Shown: positions 2,447 to 55,314 of the stretch, one piece after another | Position numbering within the stretch: position 1 is the stretch's first letter | How the letters are laid out: the number at the start of each line of letters is the position of its first letter | From: a virus | Taxonomy: Duplodnaviria; Heunggongvirae; Uroviricota; Caudoviricetes | Length of the DNA stretch: 64,000 nt | Direction: 5' to 3' (one strand) | Virus record (IMG/VR): IMGVR_UViG_2693429668_000006 | Made by a program: the position numbers and the translations under genes | The notes under the pieces: generated by a model | Seen by the model: only the letters and a program-made list of their open reading frames with translations | Database searches by the model: none | Told to the model about the DNA's origin: nothing

Positions 2447-3031
2447 ATAAACTCCTGAATCAAGCGCCGCGCCGATTTTTTTTCCTCGCGCGTGCGCACA
2501 CGCGTGCGTGTTAATAATTATTAAAATAAACAAATTACTTCCCAGAACAGGTTTTTATAAACCTGAACTGAACGAACGAAGTGAGTGAAGTTCACCTCGA
2601 ACGAAGTGAGAGGTTGTCTTTTCAGGTAATACTCTCCCAGGGAGGTGAGTACAAAATTTCCTCACCAACCTGGTCGTTTCATAACCTGAAAAGTTATGAC
2701 CTAAGTCTACTGCCAGCTTAGGCTTGGGAAGTTATGGATGACAGCACCCCAGAACCGAGATCTTCCCACACTTTATGAAGGGGAGTACTGGATTCAACCT
2801 CTCGAAACACCCCAGACTCGACAATCATAAAGTGACCCTTGTCTCTGCTCACTTTGGTTCCCCCTTCCCCAACCCCTAAACGGTGCCGGTTCTACGCTGG
2901 TAGTGAGCTTTTTTAAACCTGACGCCAGTGACGCTTACCCCCACCCATCAGGTCGAGCCTCCAATCTACGACTGGAAACTATCAGATCTTAGCACTTACA
3001 ATTCACTTTATGAATAGTTTGTACTTATCTA

Positions 3032-30102: not shown

Positions 30103-30431
30103 TGATGCCCGCCAATTGGCGGGCATCTGTTCTCTGTAAAGGTGTCTGGCATCGTCTGGTTCGTTAACGTTTACTAAACCAATGGTGACAAAAATTAGTT
30201 ATCTTTGAAAAATAAAGGTTGCATGAAAAGAAGGGGTATGCGTTAATAGCATCGTTGGTTTGCAAGACAGACCTTATGTAAGCAGTTTTAGTAAAGCAGT
30301 CTCAGTTCAGTGTTATCTTCTGATTTCCCTTCTTCGTGAGTCTCCTCCTTAAGTGCCTAAGTAAGTCCCAATCTATACAGATCAAATTCTCGCCGCACTA
30401 TGTGGCTCACAAAATTAAGAAGGTAATATCT

Positions 30432-30647
30432 ATGTCTAATAAAATGACTGGTTTAGTAAAATGGTTTAACTCTGATAAAGGCTTTGGCTTTATTTCTCCT
30501 GCTGATGGCAGTAAAGATGTTTTTGTACATTTTTCGGCAATTCAGAGTAATAATTTCCGCACTTTGGAAGAAGGCCAGCAGGTCGAATTCTCTATCGAGA
30601 ATGGGGCTAAAGGCCCAGCAGCAGCAAATGTCGTTGCTCTAAGCTGA
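30432..30647 (+). CDS. cold-shock protein (CspA family, 71 aa)
   Basis: RNP1/RNP2 motifs KGFGFI and VFVHF; GLVKWFN start; ~190-nt leader upstream. Confidence 0.85.
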
Positions 30648-30925
30648 TTCAACGCTGATGATCCTCATTTCTACAATAACGAAGACGGTGTAAGCCTGAG
30701 TGGATAGATTTGTAGGATTGTACAAGTTGAATAAATTAGCATGGTAAGGCCATGCTAATTAAATCGACACAACGGCCAGTTTATTCCATAAAAGTGAATT
30801 GCCCATTGTGGCGAAATGCGGGGTTGCCGCATGAATAGTCAAAGGCAGAAGCTAACTGCCGGCATGGCAAAACAAAGTGCGTAAGAGGAGTGACTTCCTC
30901 AACAAGCGCCATAATTCTTTATAAA

Positions 30926-42311: not shown

Positions 42312-42866
42312 TTATTTTATTTTATCTTCTTCTAAACGAGAAAATTTAAATTGTTTATCGGTGATGGTGAGTAGTGTTACACCTTCCTTTTCGTGTAAAA
42401 GACCGGCACCGTTTGACACCATAATCAATCTATCCTTCCCTCGAAAGATTTCATAATATTTACCAGCTCCACAAGTTTTAGTTTCAATACAGTCCATGCC
42501 AGATACTGCTTCTCTGTTAAAAACACGATCTTTTGTAGCAACGGGTTTTCCGTACTCCTTTGTCAGCATTTCACTTATCTGGATGAATGTATACTTACCA
42601 ACATTACTGGTTAATGACATTTCGACTTTTCCGTCGATCAGGTTGCCATTCGTATGCGGTTCTTTTTCAGTCGGACTATTTTTATCTTGAAGAATAAACA
42701 CTTCAACATTTTGTGTTAGCTTCTTGAATTGGGCTTTATAATTTTGTTCAAGTTCACTTTTATCTTTGCCTATTAACGTTAATTCATCTATTTCAGATTC
42801 GTTACACCCTGTTAGTGTTAACGCAATTATTAGAGATGCGAAAATATTGAGATGGCACTTCTTCAT
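42312..42866 (-). CDS. lipoprotein (184 aa)
   Basis: signal peptide with lipobox LTGC; AT-rich. Confidence 0.55.
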   Translation of the reverse strand: MKKCHLNIFASLIIALTLTGCNESEIDELTLIGKDKSELEQNYKAQFKKLTQNVEVFILQDKNSPTEKEPHTNGNLIDGKVEMSLTSNVGKYTFIQISEMLTKEYGKPVATKDRVFNREAVSGMDCIETKTCGAGKYYEIFRGKDRLIMVSNGAGLLHEKEGVTLLTITDKQFKFSRLEEDKIK

Positions 42867-42982
42867 TAATTTGTCTCCATGTTTAACTGCTGCGATCTAA
42901 TCAGGAACATGAAGGCAGTCTAACGCTGCCTCGGATCAAAGCGATAAAACGATACGTGAATATAACTAAGTGTCAACAAATC

Positions 42983-43005
42983 AAAAAAGGGGCCGAAGCC
43001 CCTTT
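42983..43005 (-). terminator. rho-independent terminator downstream of tRNA cluster
   Basis: hairpin GGGGC-CGAA-GCCCC with A6 on plus strand (T6 on minus strand). Confidence 0.6.
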
Positions 43006-43159
43006 GAATTTTGCGCTGAAAAAAGTGTTGCTAGGATGTTAGCAAGCTATGGTTAAGAACGTCTGCCGTAATTGTCTATCACAGCGTTGAGCGGTCTGGT
43101 TTATGTTAGCGGAGTCTTAATCTGGTTGATTAAAAGGCCAAACCGCTCAACGCTGTGTC

Positions 43160-43246
43160 TGGCGGAGAGTAATGGAATCGAACCATCATCGTTTGCACAA
43201 TGGGACGGTTTTCAAGACCGCTTGAGCACCATGCTCCCTACTCTCC
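43160..43246 (-). tRNA. tRNA-Ser (anticodon UGA)
   Basis: 87-nt cloverleaf with encoded CCA, anticodon loop CUUGAAA, long variable arm, T-loop TTCGATT. Confidence 0.8.
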
Positions 43247-43540
43247 AATTGTGTTGTGTGCTCCGTTTCGTGGAGCTAACGGCGGGTGATCAGACCGCAC
43301 CAGGTTGGACGTATTTCAGCGTTATGCTGTTGCAAGAGAGCCAAATTGTGATGGCCGGTGCTGATCTCCGGCATTGCCTACGTTAGCGGCCTTCAGGCAG
43401 TTCATCCGCTTGCTTCTACGTCGCACATCAGCCTGTGCATTCACCACAATGTTGAGAACACTGGTTGTCACGCTGCAACGCAACATTATATTCATAAATT
43501 GGGATATGAACCCGTTACGCCAATGTTCTCAATATTATGT

Positions 43541-43616
43541 TGGTGCCGGTTAACGGACTTGAACCGCTGGCCATTTGCTTACAAAGCGACTGCTCTACCA
43601 ACTGAGCTAAACCGGC
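43541..43616 (-). tRNA. tRNA-Thr (anticodon UGU), two mismatches in anticodon stem
   Basis: 76 nt; acceptor/D/T arms canonical; loop TTTGTAA; possibly pseudo-tRNA. Confidence 0.6.
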
Positions 43617-43620
43617 AATT

Positions 43621-43707
43621 TGGTGGGGAGTGATGGAGTCGAACCACCCGAGTCGCAATGACAGTAGATTTACAGTCTACACCGCTACCTCTACGGACTA
43701 ACTCCCC
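43621..43707 (-). tRNA. tRNA-Tyr (anticodon GUA)
   Basis: 87 nt; anticodon arm GTAGA-CTGTAAA-TCTAC; long variable arm. Confidence 0.8.
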
Positions 43708-43712
43708 TAAAT

Positions 43713-43787
43713 TGGCGATGGTGGGTGGATTCGAACCACCGATCAGTTGGTTAACAGCCAACTGCTCTACCGCTGAGCTACACCATC
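43713..43787 (-). tRNA. tRNA-Asn (anticodon GUU)
   Basis: 75 nt; anticodon arm GTTGG-CTGTTAA-CCAAC; T-arm GGTGG-TTCGAAT-CCACC. Confidence 0.85.
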
Positions 43788-44545
43788 AATTCAGCACTGC
43801 CAGTATTTATTACTCAGCAGTGCCAATCGCGGCGGTGTTAGTTTTTGCCAATAAACGCACCGCTACTTGCACTTTTCGTTAGTGCCAGACGTTTTCGACT
43901 TCGCTCAATAGAAGGCAAAATCTTTAAGTAGATGATGTTTCTGAGGACAGCACCTACTTTGTAATTTACATAATGCGGTGTATGGAATCATTTGTTGTGA
44001 AAACAGGCACCAATGGCAACAGTGGTTAAACCTACACAACAATCCTGTCTTCACAACGTTGAGGCCACTACCCCGATTGAATGTTTGCCCAACATGTTAC
44101 ATATCAACGTTCGCCAGTATCTCTGTGAATAGAACCTTAGAATTGATAAAAATGTAATGGCCTCAACGTTGTGTGCTGGCTAACCATACCAGCCGGGCTA
44201 CGTCGCCGCTTTTTAACCCAGTATAAACGACATAATTGAACAAAATGACGTAACAGGATGGGCGGTCAGTGGCTAAGAATCCGGGAGTGATATGGAGTTG
44301 GAAATATACCGACCGCCCATTCTGTTACTTCATCGGAGAGGGCATGGGTGGTGCCGTATCATGCCCTCTCCTGCGTTCTGCAATCACACTCGCTCAGTGT
44401 GTCCCATTTCGGTAACGAGGCTGGAAACTGACCTCGCTGGTGTTTGGCTTATTAGGCTACTGCCAGATAGACTTCTTCGTTTGCACTTGTATTTAAGTTC
44501 AAACAGTCGCGTCTCAACGAAAACAAAGCCATCTTATACATAAAA

Positions 44546-44567
44546 GATAAGTAAGTAAATACTTATC
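44546..44567 (-). promoter_or_regulatory. class-A palindromic motif GATAAGTAAGTAAATACTTATC
   Basis: upstream (minus-strand sense) of the structured noncoding region and tRNA cluster. Confidence 0.4.
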
Positions 44568-44576
44568 GTGATGTTT

Positions 44577-44867
44577 TTATTCGGTTGTGACTTTTTTGAT
44601 CATGGCCACTCTACGATCAGGTGTTCTTGTGATGGTTGCAGTGAATCGTTTCGCTTGGATAGTAATGGTTTCGTTCTCCTTAAGTTGCCCGTAGCGAGTT
44701 TCCACCAGGGTGCCAAGACGCCACAGGCAATCATCGATACGTTTATGACTGGCAAATTTAATCAGCAGCAGTTTTACGACTAACTGACCTACGTAAAAGG
44801 CGAATCCGACTCCAGTCGCGATGAAATAGTGTACCAACCACCAGTCCCAAGAAGTTAAATTGCTCAT
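44577..44867 (-). CDS. membrane protein (96 aa)
   Basis: N-terminal hydrophobic helices. Confidence 0.4.
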   Translation of the reverse strand: MSNLTSWDWWLVHYFIATGVGFAFYVGQLVVKLLLIKFASHKRIDDCLWRLGTLVETRYGQLKENETITIQAKRFTATITRTPDRRVAMIKKVTTE

Positions 44868-53607: not shown

Positions 53608-55314
53608 TTAATGATTGAGTATTTTATTAACACGCAGCTTATTAAGTGTTGATTTTGAAGCAACTTCCTCCAAAGCTTCTATTGCTTTATCAGTGATGCT
53701 CTTCTGTTCGTCTGTCGGGTGTTGCATACCCTTGAACTTGAGCATAGTCTCTTCTACTAAATTCAAAGCATCCTGATCACAGGATAATATCCAGTTTACG
53801 TAATCATCTTTAGAAAAACTGTTAAGAATATTCACATCACTATGGTTAAATCTTCCACCAGCTATTTTTTTTATAATTTTATCTAAGTTATAGTCATCTG
53901 GATTTCTATCTTTCAATTTTTTTTCAATTCTGAAACCTAATTCTTCATTTCCGAAGATCTCTACTCGCAAAGAATTAAATGTAGCATACGCATTGTCTTT
54001 ATTAACAAAAGCATCTGCATATGCCTCTATAATATTATTACAATCTCTATCCAATTTGATTAGGACATTTATTAAACCTACGAACTGTCCAATTGGTATA
54101 CGCAACAGACTATCGTTAATTACGCGCTCAATTTGAAAAATAAACTCTGATTCATTATCTTTAAAAGAGTTTCTAAAAACATCCCAAATTTTATAAACCT
54201 CACATAAAACCCTATTATCTCTATATTGTTCATTTTTTTCTTTTATTATATTTAGAATATTGCTTTCAGAAGACACATAACCGTTCTTAAGGTAAAAATC
54301 TATATCATCATCGAAAGCACTTTCTGCTCGTTCATAAATAATATCAAGGCTATTAACAAATGAATATACAGAGTTAACTTCTTCCTTTTCATCTTTATCA
54401 TCTAACATATAGTCGAATGCATGTATATTTTTGATTGACTCCTTAAATGAAGCATAATCAACGCTAGGAACACCAAAATAGTAAACCACTGAAAATAAGA
54501 CCAATCTATTAATAAAACTTTCTCTAACCTTATCCTCTGCTAACTTTAGCACATCTCTAAATATAACTAGAGATGATTTTATTTTATTTAATATTCTAAT
54601 GTTTTTGATGTTTAAATCATTTGCTAGGTTTTTTAACAAAAGAAAATCAGGGTCAGTCTCATAAAAAACTTTTCTTAAGTTTTTCTCAGGCGTGGGATCG
54701 TATTTTATTTCCACATCAATTATTTTTTCTCTATACTCTAAAAACTGTTGTTGTGCAGTTTCTTCATGTAAGTTATCTTCATTTAATATTAGAACAACCT
54801 TGCAATTTTTTCTTCTTGCCAACTCATCAATTACCCCCATAATCTCTTTAATTTCTAGCGCACTACCTTTTCGTTCAATATCATCAATGCAAACCAAATA
54901 ATTATTAACAAATTTATACTCAAGAGATGACAGCAGATTATCAGTTTTGAACCCAAAAAAATCGTTCTTTCCAAAATGTATTAAAAATTTTGACAAGGAG
55001 TTGTATTTCAACCATCCCCAAAACCCATTTCTATAACGAATCATAGTTCGATCCGTTTCAGATAAAATCAGTTCTTTATATTTCTTTTCATTAATTGGTG
55101 TGGCACAATGATAAAGAGCTTTTTTAATGTCTCCAATAGAATTTATTCCAAACAAAGAAACATATGAATATGCATTAAAATCTAATTTTTTAGAATGTTT
55201 AGTATAAAAGCTATTCCAATAATGCGTTTTACCTACTCCCCAATTTCCTTTTATGACAGCAACCCGATGATCTGAGTCCAAAAAATTTTTTAAAAATACT
55301 TCTATCGATTCCAT
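53608..55314 (-). CDS. KAP-family-like P-loop NTPase (568 aa), AT-rich accessory gene
   Basis: Walker A GNWGVGKT (GxWGxGK[ST]), Walker B LVCIDDIERK (hhhhDD[LI][DE]R); strongly AT-rich. Confidence 0.55.
   Translation of the reverse strand: MESIEVFLKNFLDSDHRVAVIKGNWGVGKTHYWNSFYTKHSKKLDFNAYSYVSLFGINSIGDIKKALYHCATPINEKKYKELILSETDRTMIRYRNGFWGWLKYNSLSKFLIHFGKNDFFGFKTDNLLSSLEYKFVNNYLVCIDDIERKGSALEIKEIMGVIDELARRKNCKVVLILNEDNLHEETAQQQFLEYREKIIDVEIKYDPTPEKNLRKVFYETDPDFLLLKNLANDLNIKNIRILNKIKSSLVIFRDVLKLAEDKVRESFINRLVLFSVVYYFGVPSVDYASFKESIKNIHAFDYMLDDKDEKEEVNSVYSFVNSLDIIYERAESAFDDDIDFYLKNGYVSSESNILNIIKEKNEQYRDNRVLCEVYKIWDVFRNSFKDNESEFIFQIERVINDSLLRIPIGQFVGLINVLIKLDRDCNNIIEAYADAFVNKDNAYATFNSLRVEIFGNEELGFRIEKKLKDRNPDDYNLDKIIKKIAGGRFNHSDVNILNSFSKDDYVNWILSCDQDALNLVEETMLKFKGMQHPTDEQKSITDKAIEALEEVASKSTLNKLRVNKILNH

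Follow-up and report, generated by a model that had tools for sequence, protein, structure and literature searches.

A tmRNA-like RNA module and a chain of hairpins in a predicted stable-RNA operon of an SSU5-type phage-plasmid

The non-coding stretch upstream of the tRNA genes in the window (the whole 64-kb stretch of DNA that was analysed) begins, on the minus strand, with a module whose structure and homology are those of a tmRNA-like RNA. The window was 100% identical to plasmid pTIC (MF554642), the relatives of which include SSU5, pHCM2-type plasmids and Yersinia pestis pMT1, and is, by its sequence, a phage-plasmid of the SSU5/pHCM2/pMT1 type. The first-pass annotation of positions 43788-44545 had described inverted repeats in an ORF-poor region and overlooked its main content, as the first ~155 nt correspond to a tmRNA-like RNA gene.

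In the proposed explanation, the region would form the 5′ half of a ~1.55-kb stable-RNA operon on the minus strand. A weak sigma-70 promoter under a recurring palindromic operator would drive transcription; if the analogy with the C1-controlled ban operon of P1 holds, the operon would stay off in the plasmid prophage and be turned on in lytic growth. The 5′ end of the transcript would be a ~155-nt RNA that descends from tmRNA or mimics it, followed by a chain of long near-perfect hairpins, several with a CACAAC...GUUGUG basal stem, then by tRNA-Asn, Tyr, Thr and Ser with two further such hairpins, and by a terminator. The 17-26-bp stems may act as punctuation, providing RNase III-type processing sites and 3′-end protection, and so freeing and stabilising the RNAs. 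This proposal as a whole (stable-RNA operon, tmRNA-like RNA, hairpin chain and tRNAs in a phage-plasmid of this type) was given a probability of about 0.74. Features are listed in Table 1.

Table 1. Features of the predicted operon in the order of minus-strand transcription; positions are those of the window.
Feature	Position	Strand	Description
Operator-like palindrome GATAAGTATTTACTTACTTATC	44546-44567	.	"class-A motif" of the first-pass annotation; one of many copies in the phage-plasmid
Putative sigma-70 promoter	-35 44559-44554, -10 44536-44531	-	TTTACT-17-TAAGAT; read from sequence
tmRNA-like RNA (module A)	44372-44525	-	~155 nt; covariance model and homologues
Tag-like frame	44449-44484	-	GCA AAC GAA GAA GUC UAU CUG GCA GUA GCC UAA UAA, ANEEVYLAVA and two stops
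Helix-5-like hairpin	44437-44466	-	CUGG...CCAG; both stop codons within the loop
Pseudoknot 2-like element	44402-44436	-	hairpin CGAGG...CCUCG; loop UUCCA pairs with downstream UGGGA
Hairpin ACACAC...GUGUGA	44385-44401	-	stem 1 of the second pseudoknot in other phages
Perfect 12-bp hairpin	44335-44371	-	directly 3′ of the tmRNA-like RNA
Long hairpin	44244-44334	-	24-26-bp stem; ~37-nt loop with conserved UCCCGG
10-bp hairpin	44198-44235	-	100% paired; G·U cells 227, A·C cells 0
Short GC-rich hairpin	44175-44193	-	GCUGG...CCAGC; 6 bp, 1 compensatory pair; ACACAAC directly after
CACAAC-stem hairpin	44052-44173	-	20-bp stem, 82-nt cargo; 18 bp, 3 compensatory pairs
14-bp hairpin	43994-44057	-	13/14 complementary; GUUGUG/CACAAC hexamer common with the preceding stem
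Distal leader	43788-43993	-	more variable; smaller hairpins up to the 5′ end of tRNA-Asn (12-representative alignment, MFE structure)
tRNA-Asn	43713-43787	-	ARAGORN, Rfam
tRNA-Tyr	43621-43707	-	ARAGORN, Rfam
tRNA-Thr	43541-43616	-	ARAGORN, Rfam
Structured spacer, tRNA-Thr to tRNA-Ser		-	294 nt; carries a CACAAC-type hairpin, 43442-43542
tRNA-Ser	43160-43246	-	ARAGORN, Rfam
CACAGC-stem hairpin	43080-43157	-	directly 3′ of tRNA-Ser; sole mismatch is G·U on the minus strand
Intrinsic terminator AAAGGGGCUUCGGCCCCUUU	42986-43005	-	with U-run, after the last hairpin; likely operon end

The tmRNA-like module

From its 5′ end the module consists of a UUUUCG segment, a resume context, a tag frame, a helix-5-like hairpin and a pseudoknot region. 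A covariance model built from non-SSU5 phages only matched the window module with 87.5 bits (E = 3e-17) and the P1 ban leader with 85.1 bits. When run on the E. coli ssrA locus, this model gave as its best match exactly the resume/tag/helix-5 segment, the match being weak (12.2 bits, E = 0.54). The CUGG/CCAG hairpin of the module was aligned by covariance model with helix 5 of E. coli tmRNA, and its 4-bp stem was invariant in all 24 aligned non-SSU5 sequences. Both stems of the pseudoknot at 44402-44436 were compensated across phages (UA/CG, GC/AU, AU/GC), with 0 non-pairs in stem 2. Non-SSU5 phages have two H-type pseudoknots, with compensatory changes in 4/4 stems; in SSU5-like copies the loop-to-downstream pairing of the second looks degenerate, and the hairpin stands alone in the window. 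The module was 99% paired, and 7 pairs and 45 cells had changed on both sides, compared with 0-1 in slid controls. The module is the best conserved segment of the leader.

The tag frame of the window lies directly 3′ of CAAGU, with A at -4 relative to the GCA resume codon. At -5 the window has C, where most lineages have U; on tmRNA, the A at -4 (with U at -5) is needed for frame selection. All 143 copies have 10 codons and a stop, and 20 nucleotide variants encode 10 peptides of the form AN[DE][DEN]x[YF]LAVA, with synonymous variation only at codons 8 and 10; the P1 tag is ANDDLMMVAA. On the basis of ~10 variable sites, the variation of the frame appears coding-like.

Homologues of the module were found in HK620, Mooglevirus, Klebsiella phages and P1, in at least 120 viral contigs and in at least five unrelated phage lineages; identity with unrelated phages was 74-78%. 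The module heads or sits within tRNA clusters in Felix-O1-like phages, Klebsiella siphophages, P1 (the ban operon leader) and the late leaders of lambdoid and HK620 phages, and at 95/143 loci same-strand tRNAs follow within 1.5 kb. The order in P1 is Pban/C1 operator, dicF-like region, module, tRNA-Asn and tRNA-Thr. Homologues in other phages lie directly 3′ of TTGACA-17-TATAGT or TTGACA-17-TAGATT, and the versions with their own promoter begin at GUUUUCG, without the 5′ strand. Through SSU5-like plasmids, ~5% of complete E. coli genomes have the module, which is also present in Salmonella Typhi pHCM2-type plasmids and Y. pestis pMT1.

A tRNA-like domain (acceptor stem, G3·U70, CCA end, T arm) was not found, and ARAGORN made no tmRNA call in the window. 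The Rfam models tmRNA_permuted and beta_tmRNA aligned the tag-frame segment far below their gathering scores; the best sub-threshold scores were 24.1 bits in P1 (gathering 47) and 17.8 bits (gathering 84), and scores of tmRNA models within the window were 14.4 and 13.9 bits. An Rfam scan, which the first-pass annotation had suggested, returned no family at threshold for the region, whether DicF, c4, Y RNA-like or another: matches at gathering in the window were solely tRNAs and cspA, and at E <= 10 nothing credible was found in 42850-44650. The HK620, L138, L025 and P1 regions (gathering and E <= 10) likewise gave no family at threshold and weak tmRNA-model matches only. Scanning genome contigs for a bacterial source with a ...LAVA tag yielded three Enterobacterales phage/plasmid loci and two unrelated matches, none called as tmRNA. 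In three of four RNAduplex comparisons, pairing between the module and E. coli tmRNA did not exceed that of shuffles. Literature searches on tmRNA-like phage RNAs, Felixounavirus tmRNA, pMT1 sRNAs, the tag peptides and the leader of P1 ban yielded nothing about the module. From these sequence comparisons, the module is a previously unannotated tmRNA relative in which the tag-coding part is kept and the tRNA-like part is absent.

Three candidates for a missing tRNA-like part were rejected. An acceptor-like closing stem with G3·U70 could be drawn from 5′-CAGUGCUCUUUCC and GGUAAGAGCAUUG-3′; these arms are parts of two different neighbouring hairpins, each with its own pairing backed by many compensatory variants, and the copies with their own promoter have no 5′ arm. 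In a two-piece (permuted) tmRNA, the missing half would be a T-arm-bearing hairpin unit, which the beta_tmRNA model loosely aligned in one lambdoid contig; such a unit lies upstream in only ~3/55 distinct non-SSU5 copies, the strand polarity misfits, and the window has no T-arm unit. Finally, ARAGORN reported the Mooglevirus copy as a permuted tmRNA with the tag ANDNVFLAVA and two stops, and the tRNA-like domain of this call was chimeric, being made of a tRNA-Lys gene and an isolated 3′ half-tRNA.

Operon boundaries, hairpins and RNA folding

All four tRNA genes are on the minus strand; therefore 43788-44545 lies upstream of tRNA-Asn in the direction of transcription, in agreement with its earlier placement upstream of the tRNA cluster. 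The operator motif ATAAGTANNTACTTAT (<=3 mismatches) had 33 matches in the window against 3.3 expected, and the position of the copy at 44546-44567 was kept across all SSU5-like relatives. This palindrome overlaps the putative promoter, for which a start at ~44524 was predicted. With 8/12 consensus matches, the promoter was below the threshold of the scan tool and was not called by it; its hexamers, TTTACT and TA(A/T)GAT, were kept in 12 divergent relatives. The distance from operator to tRNA-Asn was 686-801 nt across SSU5-like loci, with one outlier, at identities down to 54%. The operator/promoter at 44531-44567 and the terminator at 43005-42986 would delimit the predicted ~1.55-kb operon. 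Genes of replication type (ligase, primase, helicase) neighbour the region, and an integrase gene is not far off.

All four inverted repeats described in the first-pass annotation were found, at positions within a few bases of those given. The pair CACAACGTTGAGGCC...GGCCTCAACGTTGTG is present with dimensions that differ from the claimed 17-bp arms ~100 nt apart: its arms are 20 nt (44052-44071 and 44154-44173, 19/20 complementary) and 82 nt apart. The pair AACAGGATGGGCGGTC...GACCGCCCATTCTGTT is contained in 26-nt arms (44245-44270 and 44308-44333, 88% complementary), GGAGAGGGCATG-N13-CATGCCCTCTCC is a perfect 12-bp hairpin (44335-44346 and 44360-44371), and the repeat 3′ of tRNA-Ser has arms at 43080-43099 and 43138-43157 (19/20). 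A fifth, related repeat was located at 43442-43464 and 43520-43542. The common arm motif CACARCGTTGAG occurs five times in the window (0.53 expected; at least five in 0/100 shuffles), and the 64 kb contain only 13 inverted repeats with a length of 16 nt or more and a spacing within 150 nt, three of which are inside this 1.1 kb.

The minus strand of the 758-nt region folded at -261.7 kcal/mol, compared with -208.5 ± 8.8 for shuffles (z = -6.0), while for the plus strand z was -5.0. Alifold energies were -137.1 for the minus strand and -89.6 for the plus strand. Across 63 distinct relatives the leader helices were 99.6% paired overall (98-100% each), and compensatory pairs were found in the hairpins at 44335-44371, 44052-44173 and 44244-44334. 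In all helices of these 63 sequences there were 843 G·U cells and 7 A·C cells, and reading the minus-strand helices on the opposite strand lowered pairing from 99.6% to 88.7%. The excess of G·U over A·C is consistent with selection on a minus-strand RNA rather than on DNA sites.

Of the individual hairpins, that at 44335-44371 had compensatory changes at 5/10 pairs in SSU5-like relatives and is homologous to the long-stem unit 3′ of the module in every lineage, where homology with the lambdoid, P1 and Felix-type units is positional. All 63 sequences kept the 24 bp of the hairpin at 44244-44334 fully paired, with 203 G·U cells and 1 A·C cell. In the hairpin at 44052-44173 the arms were kept and the cargo differed among relatives, with cargo variants of 112-122 nt. 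Mosaic breakpoints coincide with its arms (pMT1 at 44050, Klebsiella plasmids at 44158), and the arms could thus matter for DNA-level recombination besides, or instead of, RNA processing.

Comparison of relatives supports the earlier suggestion that a structured leader, or small RNAs, would be transcribed together with the tRNAs; this expression is predicted from the conserved gap of ~740-800 nt between operator and tRNA-Asn in SSU5-like relatives, the paired helices, the strand asymmetry, the promoter/operator at the 5′ side and the terminator at the 3′ side. The first-pass annotation had held that a lack of structural conservation in related genomes would count against such a leader; the helices were kept in 63 relatives.

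Alternative readings of the region

Among the alternatives, the one that fared best, improbable as it is, treats the CACAAC-stem hairpins as MITE-like elements or recombination "linkers" dispersed over phage non-coding regions, with incidental RNA structure. Their terminal inverted repeats have a common 12-nt end around cargos of 38-100 nt, three copies are present in the window, P1 and the immunity and late regions of lambdoid phages have related ones, and they coincide with mosaic junctions. However, target-site duplications were not seen at any of the three copies, and their cargos are unrelated to one another, unlike those of MITEs, whose copies have a common interior. Past the first 6-12 nt the arms also differ between copies while staying self-complementary, each single mismatch reads as G·U on the tRNA strand, and the orientation to the tRNAs is always fixed.

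Decay of tRNA or tmRNA genes into functionless fossils was considered very improbable. The first-pass annotation had offered decayed tRNA genes as an option, the tRNA cluster adjoins the region, the module lacks a tRNA-like domain in the manner of a truncated pseudogene, and a T-arm-like GGUUCGAAUCC is carried by some hairpin units of lambdoid phages and P1. Within 43788-44545, relaxed ARAGORN, a T-loop search and the Rfam tRNA clan all gave no support for this option. ARAGORN at thresholds of 70-100%, with introns and in mitochondrial mode, made no credible call inside; the only two calls were on the plus strand at the 80% threshold, required introns and were treated as spurious. No T-loop-like motif was present, and the matches to the tRNA clan were the four tRNA genes only. 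Decay also fits poorly with a module that is the best conserved part of the leader, in which four stems are compensated and the LAVA codons change synonymously only, that in two further phage groups is headed by a strong promoter of its own and that has been kept across so many unrelated lineages.

Slightly less probable still is that the hairpins are DNA-level elements, such as a replication origin, sites of single-strand initiation, centromere or recombinase sites, or cruciforms. The replication-gene neighbours, the over-represented arm motif and the breakpoints of pMT1 and Klebsiella plasmids at the arms of 44052-44173 fit this possibility. The strand-asymmetric substitutions and the loss of pairing on the other strand argue against it; moreover, the arms vary by compensatory substitution and hold no fixed binding sequence, and the same modules occur far from origins, both within the tRNA clusters that virulent Felix-O1-like phages carry and in the late leaders of lambdoids. 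Integron attC sites were rejected by reading: in either orientation the left arm contains GTTGAGC and the right arm GCTCAAC, the reverse of RYYYAAC left and GTTRRRY right.

That the stretch encodes small proteins, e.g. the 83-aa ORF 44292-44543 (plus strand) or the ORF annotated in pJN2-26, is scarcely credible: mechanical ORFs of 48-83 aa are present and a hypothetical ORF has been annotated here in one relative, but the ORFs shift, shorten or vanish across relatives and have no Pfam match, many alignment indels are not multiples of three, and conservation tracks base pairing, so that "ORF-poor" was right in substance (ORFs of <=83 aa on the plus strand).

Known systems and possible role

The module resembles tmRNA (SsrA; RF00023, two-piece RF01850, RF04321) in its A-rich resume context, the A at -4 and the GCA resume codon, in a 10-codon tag, AN(D/E)xx(Y/F)LAVA, comparable to ANDENYALAA of E. 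coli, in stop codons located in the loop of a short helix (cf. helix 5) with H-type pseudoknots downstream, and possibly in a UUCG...UUUGCG segment near the 5′ end. It lies among tRNA genes, as do the tmRNA genes of large phages. It differs in having no acceptor stem, G3·U70, CCA end or T arm, and therefore no evident means of charging or of delivery by SmpB/EF-Tu. It is also shorter (~155-170 nt versus ~360) with two pseudoknots rather than four, its tag ends in LAVA (VAA in P1), Rfam scores are below gathering, and ARAGORN makes no call in the window.

A phage-borne partial tmRNA is described for mycobacteriophage DS6A, where a CDS-less tmRNA consisting of the tRNA-like domain only is reported to inhibit host tmRNA (cited in PMC11915505). 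DS6A is a precedent for a phage using half the molecule, and the halves differ: DS6A has a tRNA-like domain without a tag frame, and the module has a tag frame and pseudoknots without a tRNA-like domain.

The closest counterpart of the whole leader is that of P1 ban, in which a repressor operator (Op72, C1) lies over the promoter and a ~650-750-nt leader containing the module homologue (85 bits), then a CACAAC-stem hairpin, precedes tRNA-Asn. P1 differs in a DicF-like sRNA and terminator ahead of the module, which the window lacks (no Rfam DicF match), and the operator sequences of the two are unrelated. Between tRNA-Thr and tRNA-Ser, the spacer of the window has 82% identity with the "upl/plp" region of P1.

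Non-tRNA stable RNAs are also part of the phage T4 tRNA cluster, in which RNAs C and D (species 1 and 2), without a known function, are co-transcribed and processed. RNAs C and D are not known to resemble tmRNA. In rRNA operons and the early RNA of phage T7, long near-perfect RNase III stems of about two helical turns flank stable RNAs in polycistronic precursors. At 17-26 bp the window stems, as putative cleavage sites, are compatible in length with ~20 bp; no counterpart is known for their common CACAAC/GUUGUG base.

For the module itself, the function inferred as most likely from sequence would be to interfere with trans-translation in the host, or to re-template it, while the phage grows, because the tag frame has evolved in the manner of a translated tag and has retained the A at -4, mostly with U at -5. 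No route is known by which a tag frame would reach the ribosome without a tRNA-like domain. A more specific and doubtful version holds that the module is a dedicated RNA gene, a tmRNA derivative lacking the tRNA-like domain, common to temperate and virulent enterobacterial phages (P1, SSU5/pHCM2/pMT1-type phage-plasmids, HK620-type lambdoids, Felix-O1-like phages and Klebsiella siphophages), whose tag frame is decoded, or occupies the decoding machinery, and so re-templates or blocks host trans-translation, for instance with a ...LAVA tag in place of the ...ALAA degradation tag or through titration of SmpB, S1 or ribosomes. If true, this would be a new kind of translational takeover, with the CACAAC-stem hairpins as its processing and assembly punctuation.

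What defines tmRNA is the combination of a tRNA-like with an mRNA-like domain, and in the known partial forms (mitochondria, plastids, phage DS6A) it is the tRNA-like half that has been retained. In the module the mRNA-like half is conserved alone, with purifying selection on the tag peptide and the pseudoknots, which raises the questions of whether infecting phages manipulate ribosome rescue or protein tagging and of how a tag template could function with no delivery domain. The "empty" stretches of ~0.7-1 kb beside phage tRNA genes and in lambdoid late leaders would be modular structured-RNA arrays; in P1, some of this sequence carries annotations for two hypothetical proteins, Upl and Plp. 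This is relevant to the annotation of phage genomes and to the engineering of P1- and SSU5-based vectors.

A conserved, strand-specific RNA structure array upstream of tRNA genes

Four tRNA genes were called by ARAGORN on the minus strand (table), so in transcriptional order the region under study (43788–44545) precedes tRNA-Asn, as the first-pass annotation had it. By sequence search, the window is 100% identical to plasmid pTIC (MF554642.1, 113 kb), 94–95% identical to many E. coli plasmids (~110 kb) and to phages Cyrano and CMS-2020a, and ~80% identical to Salmonella phage SSU5, pHCM2-type Salmonella plasmids, Enterobacter, Citrobacter and Klebsiella plasmids, and Yersinia pestis pMT1. Based on its identities to pTIC, SSU5, the pHCM2-type plasmids and pMT1, it is classed as an SSU5-type phage-plasmid. 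The tRNA cargo is polymorphic among relatives: tRNA-Tyr is present in the window and part of the family and missing from Cyrano and others, and relatives without it carry Asn-Thr-Ser, Asn-Ser or Asn only. Elsewhere, 30254–30672 (+) is a full-length match to the cspA thermoregulator 5′UTR (Rfam RF01766; 185.7 bits versus a gathering score of 78), suggesting that a cold-shock gene of the cspA type, together with its RNA thermosensor, is carried by the phage-plasmid.

Features of the tRNA operon and its leader
Feature	Position	Strand	Details
Palindrome GATAAGTATTTACTTACTTATC	44546–44567		upstream end of leader; from sequence
Putative promoter TTTACT-17-TAAGAT	44559–44531	minus	overlapped by palindrome
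tmRNA-like module	44372–44525	minus	first ~155 nt of leader
Inverted repeat	44335–44346 / 44360–44371		12 nt, perfect, N13 loop
Inverted repeat	44245–44270 / 44308–44333		26 nt, 88% complementary
Inverted repeat	44052–44071 / 44154–44173		20 nt, 19/20 complementary, 82 nt between arms
tRNA-Asn	43713–43787	minus	ARAGORN
tRNA-Tyr	43621–43707	minus	ARAGORN
tRNA-Thr	43541–43616	minus	ARAGORN
Fifth inverted repeat	43442–43464 / 43520–43542		directly 3′ of tRNA-Thr
tRNA-Ser	43160–43246	minus	ARAGORN
Inverted repeat	43080–43099 / 43138–43157		19/20 complementary, directly 3′ of tRNA-Ser
Intrinsic terminator	43005–42986	minus	after last hairpin

Every inverted repeat listed in the first-pass annotation was found. 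The arm start CACARCGTTGAG, common to three of the five repeats, has 5 matches in the window versus 0.53 expected, and only 13 inverted repeats (≥16 nt, within 150 nt) occur in the whole 64 kb, 3 of them in this 1.1-kb tract of leader and tRNA genes. The minus-strand fold of the 758 nt has an energy of −261.7 kcal/mol versus −208.5 ± 8.8 in shuffles (z = −6.0); for the plus strand, z = −5.0.

A gene-free gap of ~750–780 nt separates tRNA-Asn from a small ORF in all annotated relatives, and the operator-to-tRNA-Asn distance, taken from SSU5-like loci containing both ends, is 686–801 nt with one outlier, a spacing kept despite identity down to 54%. The region had been described as ORF-poor, which holds in that its ORFs (up to 83 aa) have no Pfam match and no conservation in relatives. 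In an alignment of 63 distinct sequences, helices were 98–100% paired (RNAalifold), with compensatory changes at 5 of 10 pairs in the 12-bp hairpin, 3 in the CACAAC hairpin (44052–44173) and more elsewhere; the proposed structured leader or co-transcribed small RNAs are supported by this structural conservation in related genomes. Across the helices, G·U cells numbered 843 versus 7 A·C cells, the alignment fold energy was −137.1 for the minus strand versus −89.6 for the plus strand, and minus-strand helices read on the plus strand were only 88.7% paired. The lone mismatches in window stems 43080–43157 and 44052–44173 are C·A on the plus strand and G·U on the minus. This strand-specific substitution pattern points to selection acting on an RNA of the minus strand and speaks against cruciforms or palindromes bound by proteins.

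A tmRNA-like module at the head of tRNA operons

Window 44382–44528 alone matched unrelated phages at 74–78% identity by sensitive BLAST. In HK620 the copy is part of the late-operon leader, with qut on one side and the annotated terminator on the other, and the Mooglevirus and Felixounavirus copies lie inside a gap of the tRNA cluster; Klebsiella siphophages also match. A degenerate pattern search retrieved at least 120 viral contigs, and 95 of 143 loci have same-strand tRNAs no more than 1.5 kb downstream.

The minus-strand frame GCA AAC GAA GAA GUC UAU CUG GCA GUA GCC UAA UAA encodes ANEEVYLAVA and two stops, compared with ANDENYALAA and two stops in E. coli SsrA. Upstream of it is A-rich sequence that includes A at −4, and both stops lie in the loop of a CUGG/CCAG hairpin, like tmRNA helix 5. 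Frame length is constant in 143 copies, in which 20 nucleotide variants give 10 peptides, all AN[DE][DEN]x[YF]LAVA; all changes at codons 8 (GCA/GCC/GCU) and 10 (GCC/GCU) are synonymous, third positions make up 6 of the 10 variable sites, and the other two frames contain stops.

ARAGORN, Rfam models and R1, a covariance model trained solely on 24 non-SSU5 module sequences, detect the tmRNA resemblance independently. ARAGORN reported a tag peptide (ANDNVFLAVA and two stops) in the Mooglevirus copy, with a tRNA-like domain that is chimeric and evidently false. The Rfam models tmRNA_permuted and beta_tmRNA aligned the resume/tag segment and first downstream hairpin of module copies (17.8–24.1 bits, E = 6e-4 to 0.05, well below gathering). 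R1 found the window module at 87.5 bits (E = 3e-17), and its weak best match at the E. coli ssrA locus (12.2 bits, E = 0.54) is exactly the resume/tag/helix-5 segment. A weak second R1 match in the window (54325–54474, minus strand; 16.8 bits, E = 0.055) is probably chance, since it is AT-rich and has neither tag frame nor stems.

Non-SSU5 copies contain two H-type pseudoknots downstream of the helix-5-like hairpin, all four stems of which show compensatory changes and almost zero non-pairs. Variants are UA/CG, GC/AU and AU/GC in pseudoknot 2 stem 1, AU/GC and GC/AU in its stem 2, and CG/UA and CG/UA/GC in pseudoknot 3 stem 1; the stem between the pseudoknot 3 loop and downstream sequence has three length variants (GCCCG/UGGGC, GCCCAC/GUGGGC, GCCCUGA/UCAGGGC), each compensated. 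Pair counting gave 99% pairing; double-sided changes affected 7 pairs and 45 cells, versus 0–1 in slid controls. The window copy retains pseudoknot 2 (CGAGG/CCUCG, with loop UUCCA pairing to UGGGA) and has pseudoknot 3 as a hairpin only. Felix-type and Klebsiella siphophage copies directly follow strong promoters (TTGACA-17-TATAGT, TTGACA-17-TAGATT), so their RNA would begin at GUUUUCG or a few bases upstream of it; the SSU5-like copy likewise directly follows its putative promoter, with a predicted start near GUUUUCG.

The closest family is tmRNA, but its defining tRNA-like domain was tested for and is absent; the module is therefore not a tmRNA. In P1 and a small number of lambdoid contigs, a T-arm-bearing hairpin unit adjoins the module; because only ~3 of the 55 distinct copies have this unit upstream, a two-piece tmRNA is not supported. 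Complementary flanks of the lambdoid copies do not form an acceptor stem with G3·U70: their two arms lie in different neighbouring hairpin units, and the internal pairing of each unit is proven by numerous compensatory variants. Decayed tRNA genes, also suggested initially, are not supported: the leader contains no T-loop motif and no credible ARAGORN call.

Two tRNA-like arrangements were observed. Lambdoid contigs L025, L014, L099 and L039, and phage P1 (L010, ~2410–2510), carry a recurring hairpin unit like a D-arm-less tRNA, not called by ARAGORN, with a long acceptor-like stem, hairpin GGCGACGUCGGAGAUCGCC (7-nt loop), 7 nt and T arm GGGUUCGAAUCCC. In Citrobacter phage Mijalis (L005, ~2586–2626, minus strand), a 425-nt gap within the tRNA cluster holds a tRNA-like arrangement that is permuted or split: a 3′ half-tRNA stands alone (T arm, ACCCUUC, G, CCA), and 4 nt further on come the complementary 5′ strand GAAGGGU and D-arm-like sequence.

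Long hairpins, mosaic junctions and the phage P1 ban operon

In all lineages the module is succeeded by a hairpin unit, which in the window is the perfect 12-bp hairpin 44335–44371. These units have 17–20 bp stems with CACAAC...GUUGUG bases, middle parts that differ between copies yet stay complementary (AGGUAAGAGCA/UGCUCUUUCCU, GUUGAGGCC/GGCCUCAAC, GGUAAGCUGC/GCAGCUUUCC, CGGUUGAAAGCA/UGCUUUCAACCG) and unrelated cargos. The family fills a ~1 kb non-coding stretch downstream of a cI-like repressor in lambdoid contig L138 (5840–6850), which includes a segment homologous to window 43380–43460. Breakpoints between relatives coincide with the arms of the 44052–44173 hairpin: pMT1 homology begins at 44050, with caf1R of the F1 capsule locus ending 14 nt from the CACAAC hairpin, and Klebsiella plasmids share sequence only from 44158. 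In Y. pestis KIM pMT-1 (L007, 2489–2620), the caf1R-caf1M-caf1A locus abuts this hairpin; the tRNA side of the operon is replaced, and the module and first hairpins are still present. The long stems may punctuate a polycistronic precursor of stable RNAs, serving in its processing and stabilisation, and their conserved ends may also favour modular exchange.

In the P1 ban-operon leader, R1 scored 85.1 bits (NC_005856, 68886–69057). This module directly follows the annotated 'dicF-like region' and its terminator, and 3′ of it lie a CACAAC-stem hairpin, tRNA-Asn and tRNA-Thr. Its tag is ANDDLMMVAA and one stop, and its pseudoknot stems (CGGGG/CCCCG, GUCG/CGAC, CAGA/UCUG, UCCCCG/CGGGGA) are entirely different in sequence and still complementary. 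The window's Thr-Ser spacer shares 82% identity with the part of P1 where ORFs upl and plp are annotated on the opposite strand; these ORFs overlap the CACAAC hairpin family and may be not genes but misannotated structured RNA. In the P1 locus (L010, 1965–2534), both are annotated opposite to the tRNA strand, one of the hairpin units they overlap carries T-arm-like GGUUCGAAUCC, and plp shares 30 nt with tRNA-Thr.

Transcription and possible function

The palindrome core ATAAGTAnnTACTTAT has 33 matches in the window (≤3 mismatches) versus 3.3 expected, and ~18 sites recur every few kb (e.g., 4058, 8893, 13609, 18293, 23749, 28538, 35948, 44551, 48073, 53443, 59024, 63234). They look like scattered copies of an operator or promoter signal, comparable to the C1 operators of P1, and resemble a many-operator phage system with a putative repressor. 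The promoter is inferred, as its match was too weak to be called by the promoter scan; its hexamers are kept as TTTACT and TA(A/T)GAT among divergent relatives. The primary transcript is predicted to be ~1.55 kb long. The ban operon is under C1 operator Op72 (annotation of the P1 record), which supports similar repressor control of the SSU5-type operon. Transcription would be repressor-controlled, and maturation of the operon RNA would depend on RNases.

Known partial tmRNAs keep the half opposite to the module, and the tmRNA database pipeline demands an acceptor stem and rejects truncations (PMC11915505), so the module form would be discarded. Rfam 15 gave no match at gathering score to the module or leader RNA, a literature search of limited reach returned no paper on the module, and no tmRNA with this tag was found in the bacterial genome collection. 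Complementarity of the module to E. coli tmRNA did not exceed that of shuffles in three of four cases and so was uninformative. We infer a role in trans-translation and, because the frame-setting context and tag are conserved, favour one involving the ribosome or SmpB, in which the module might serve as an alternative template or else compete.
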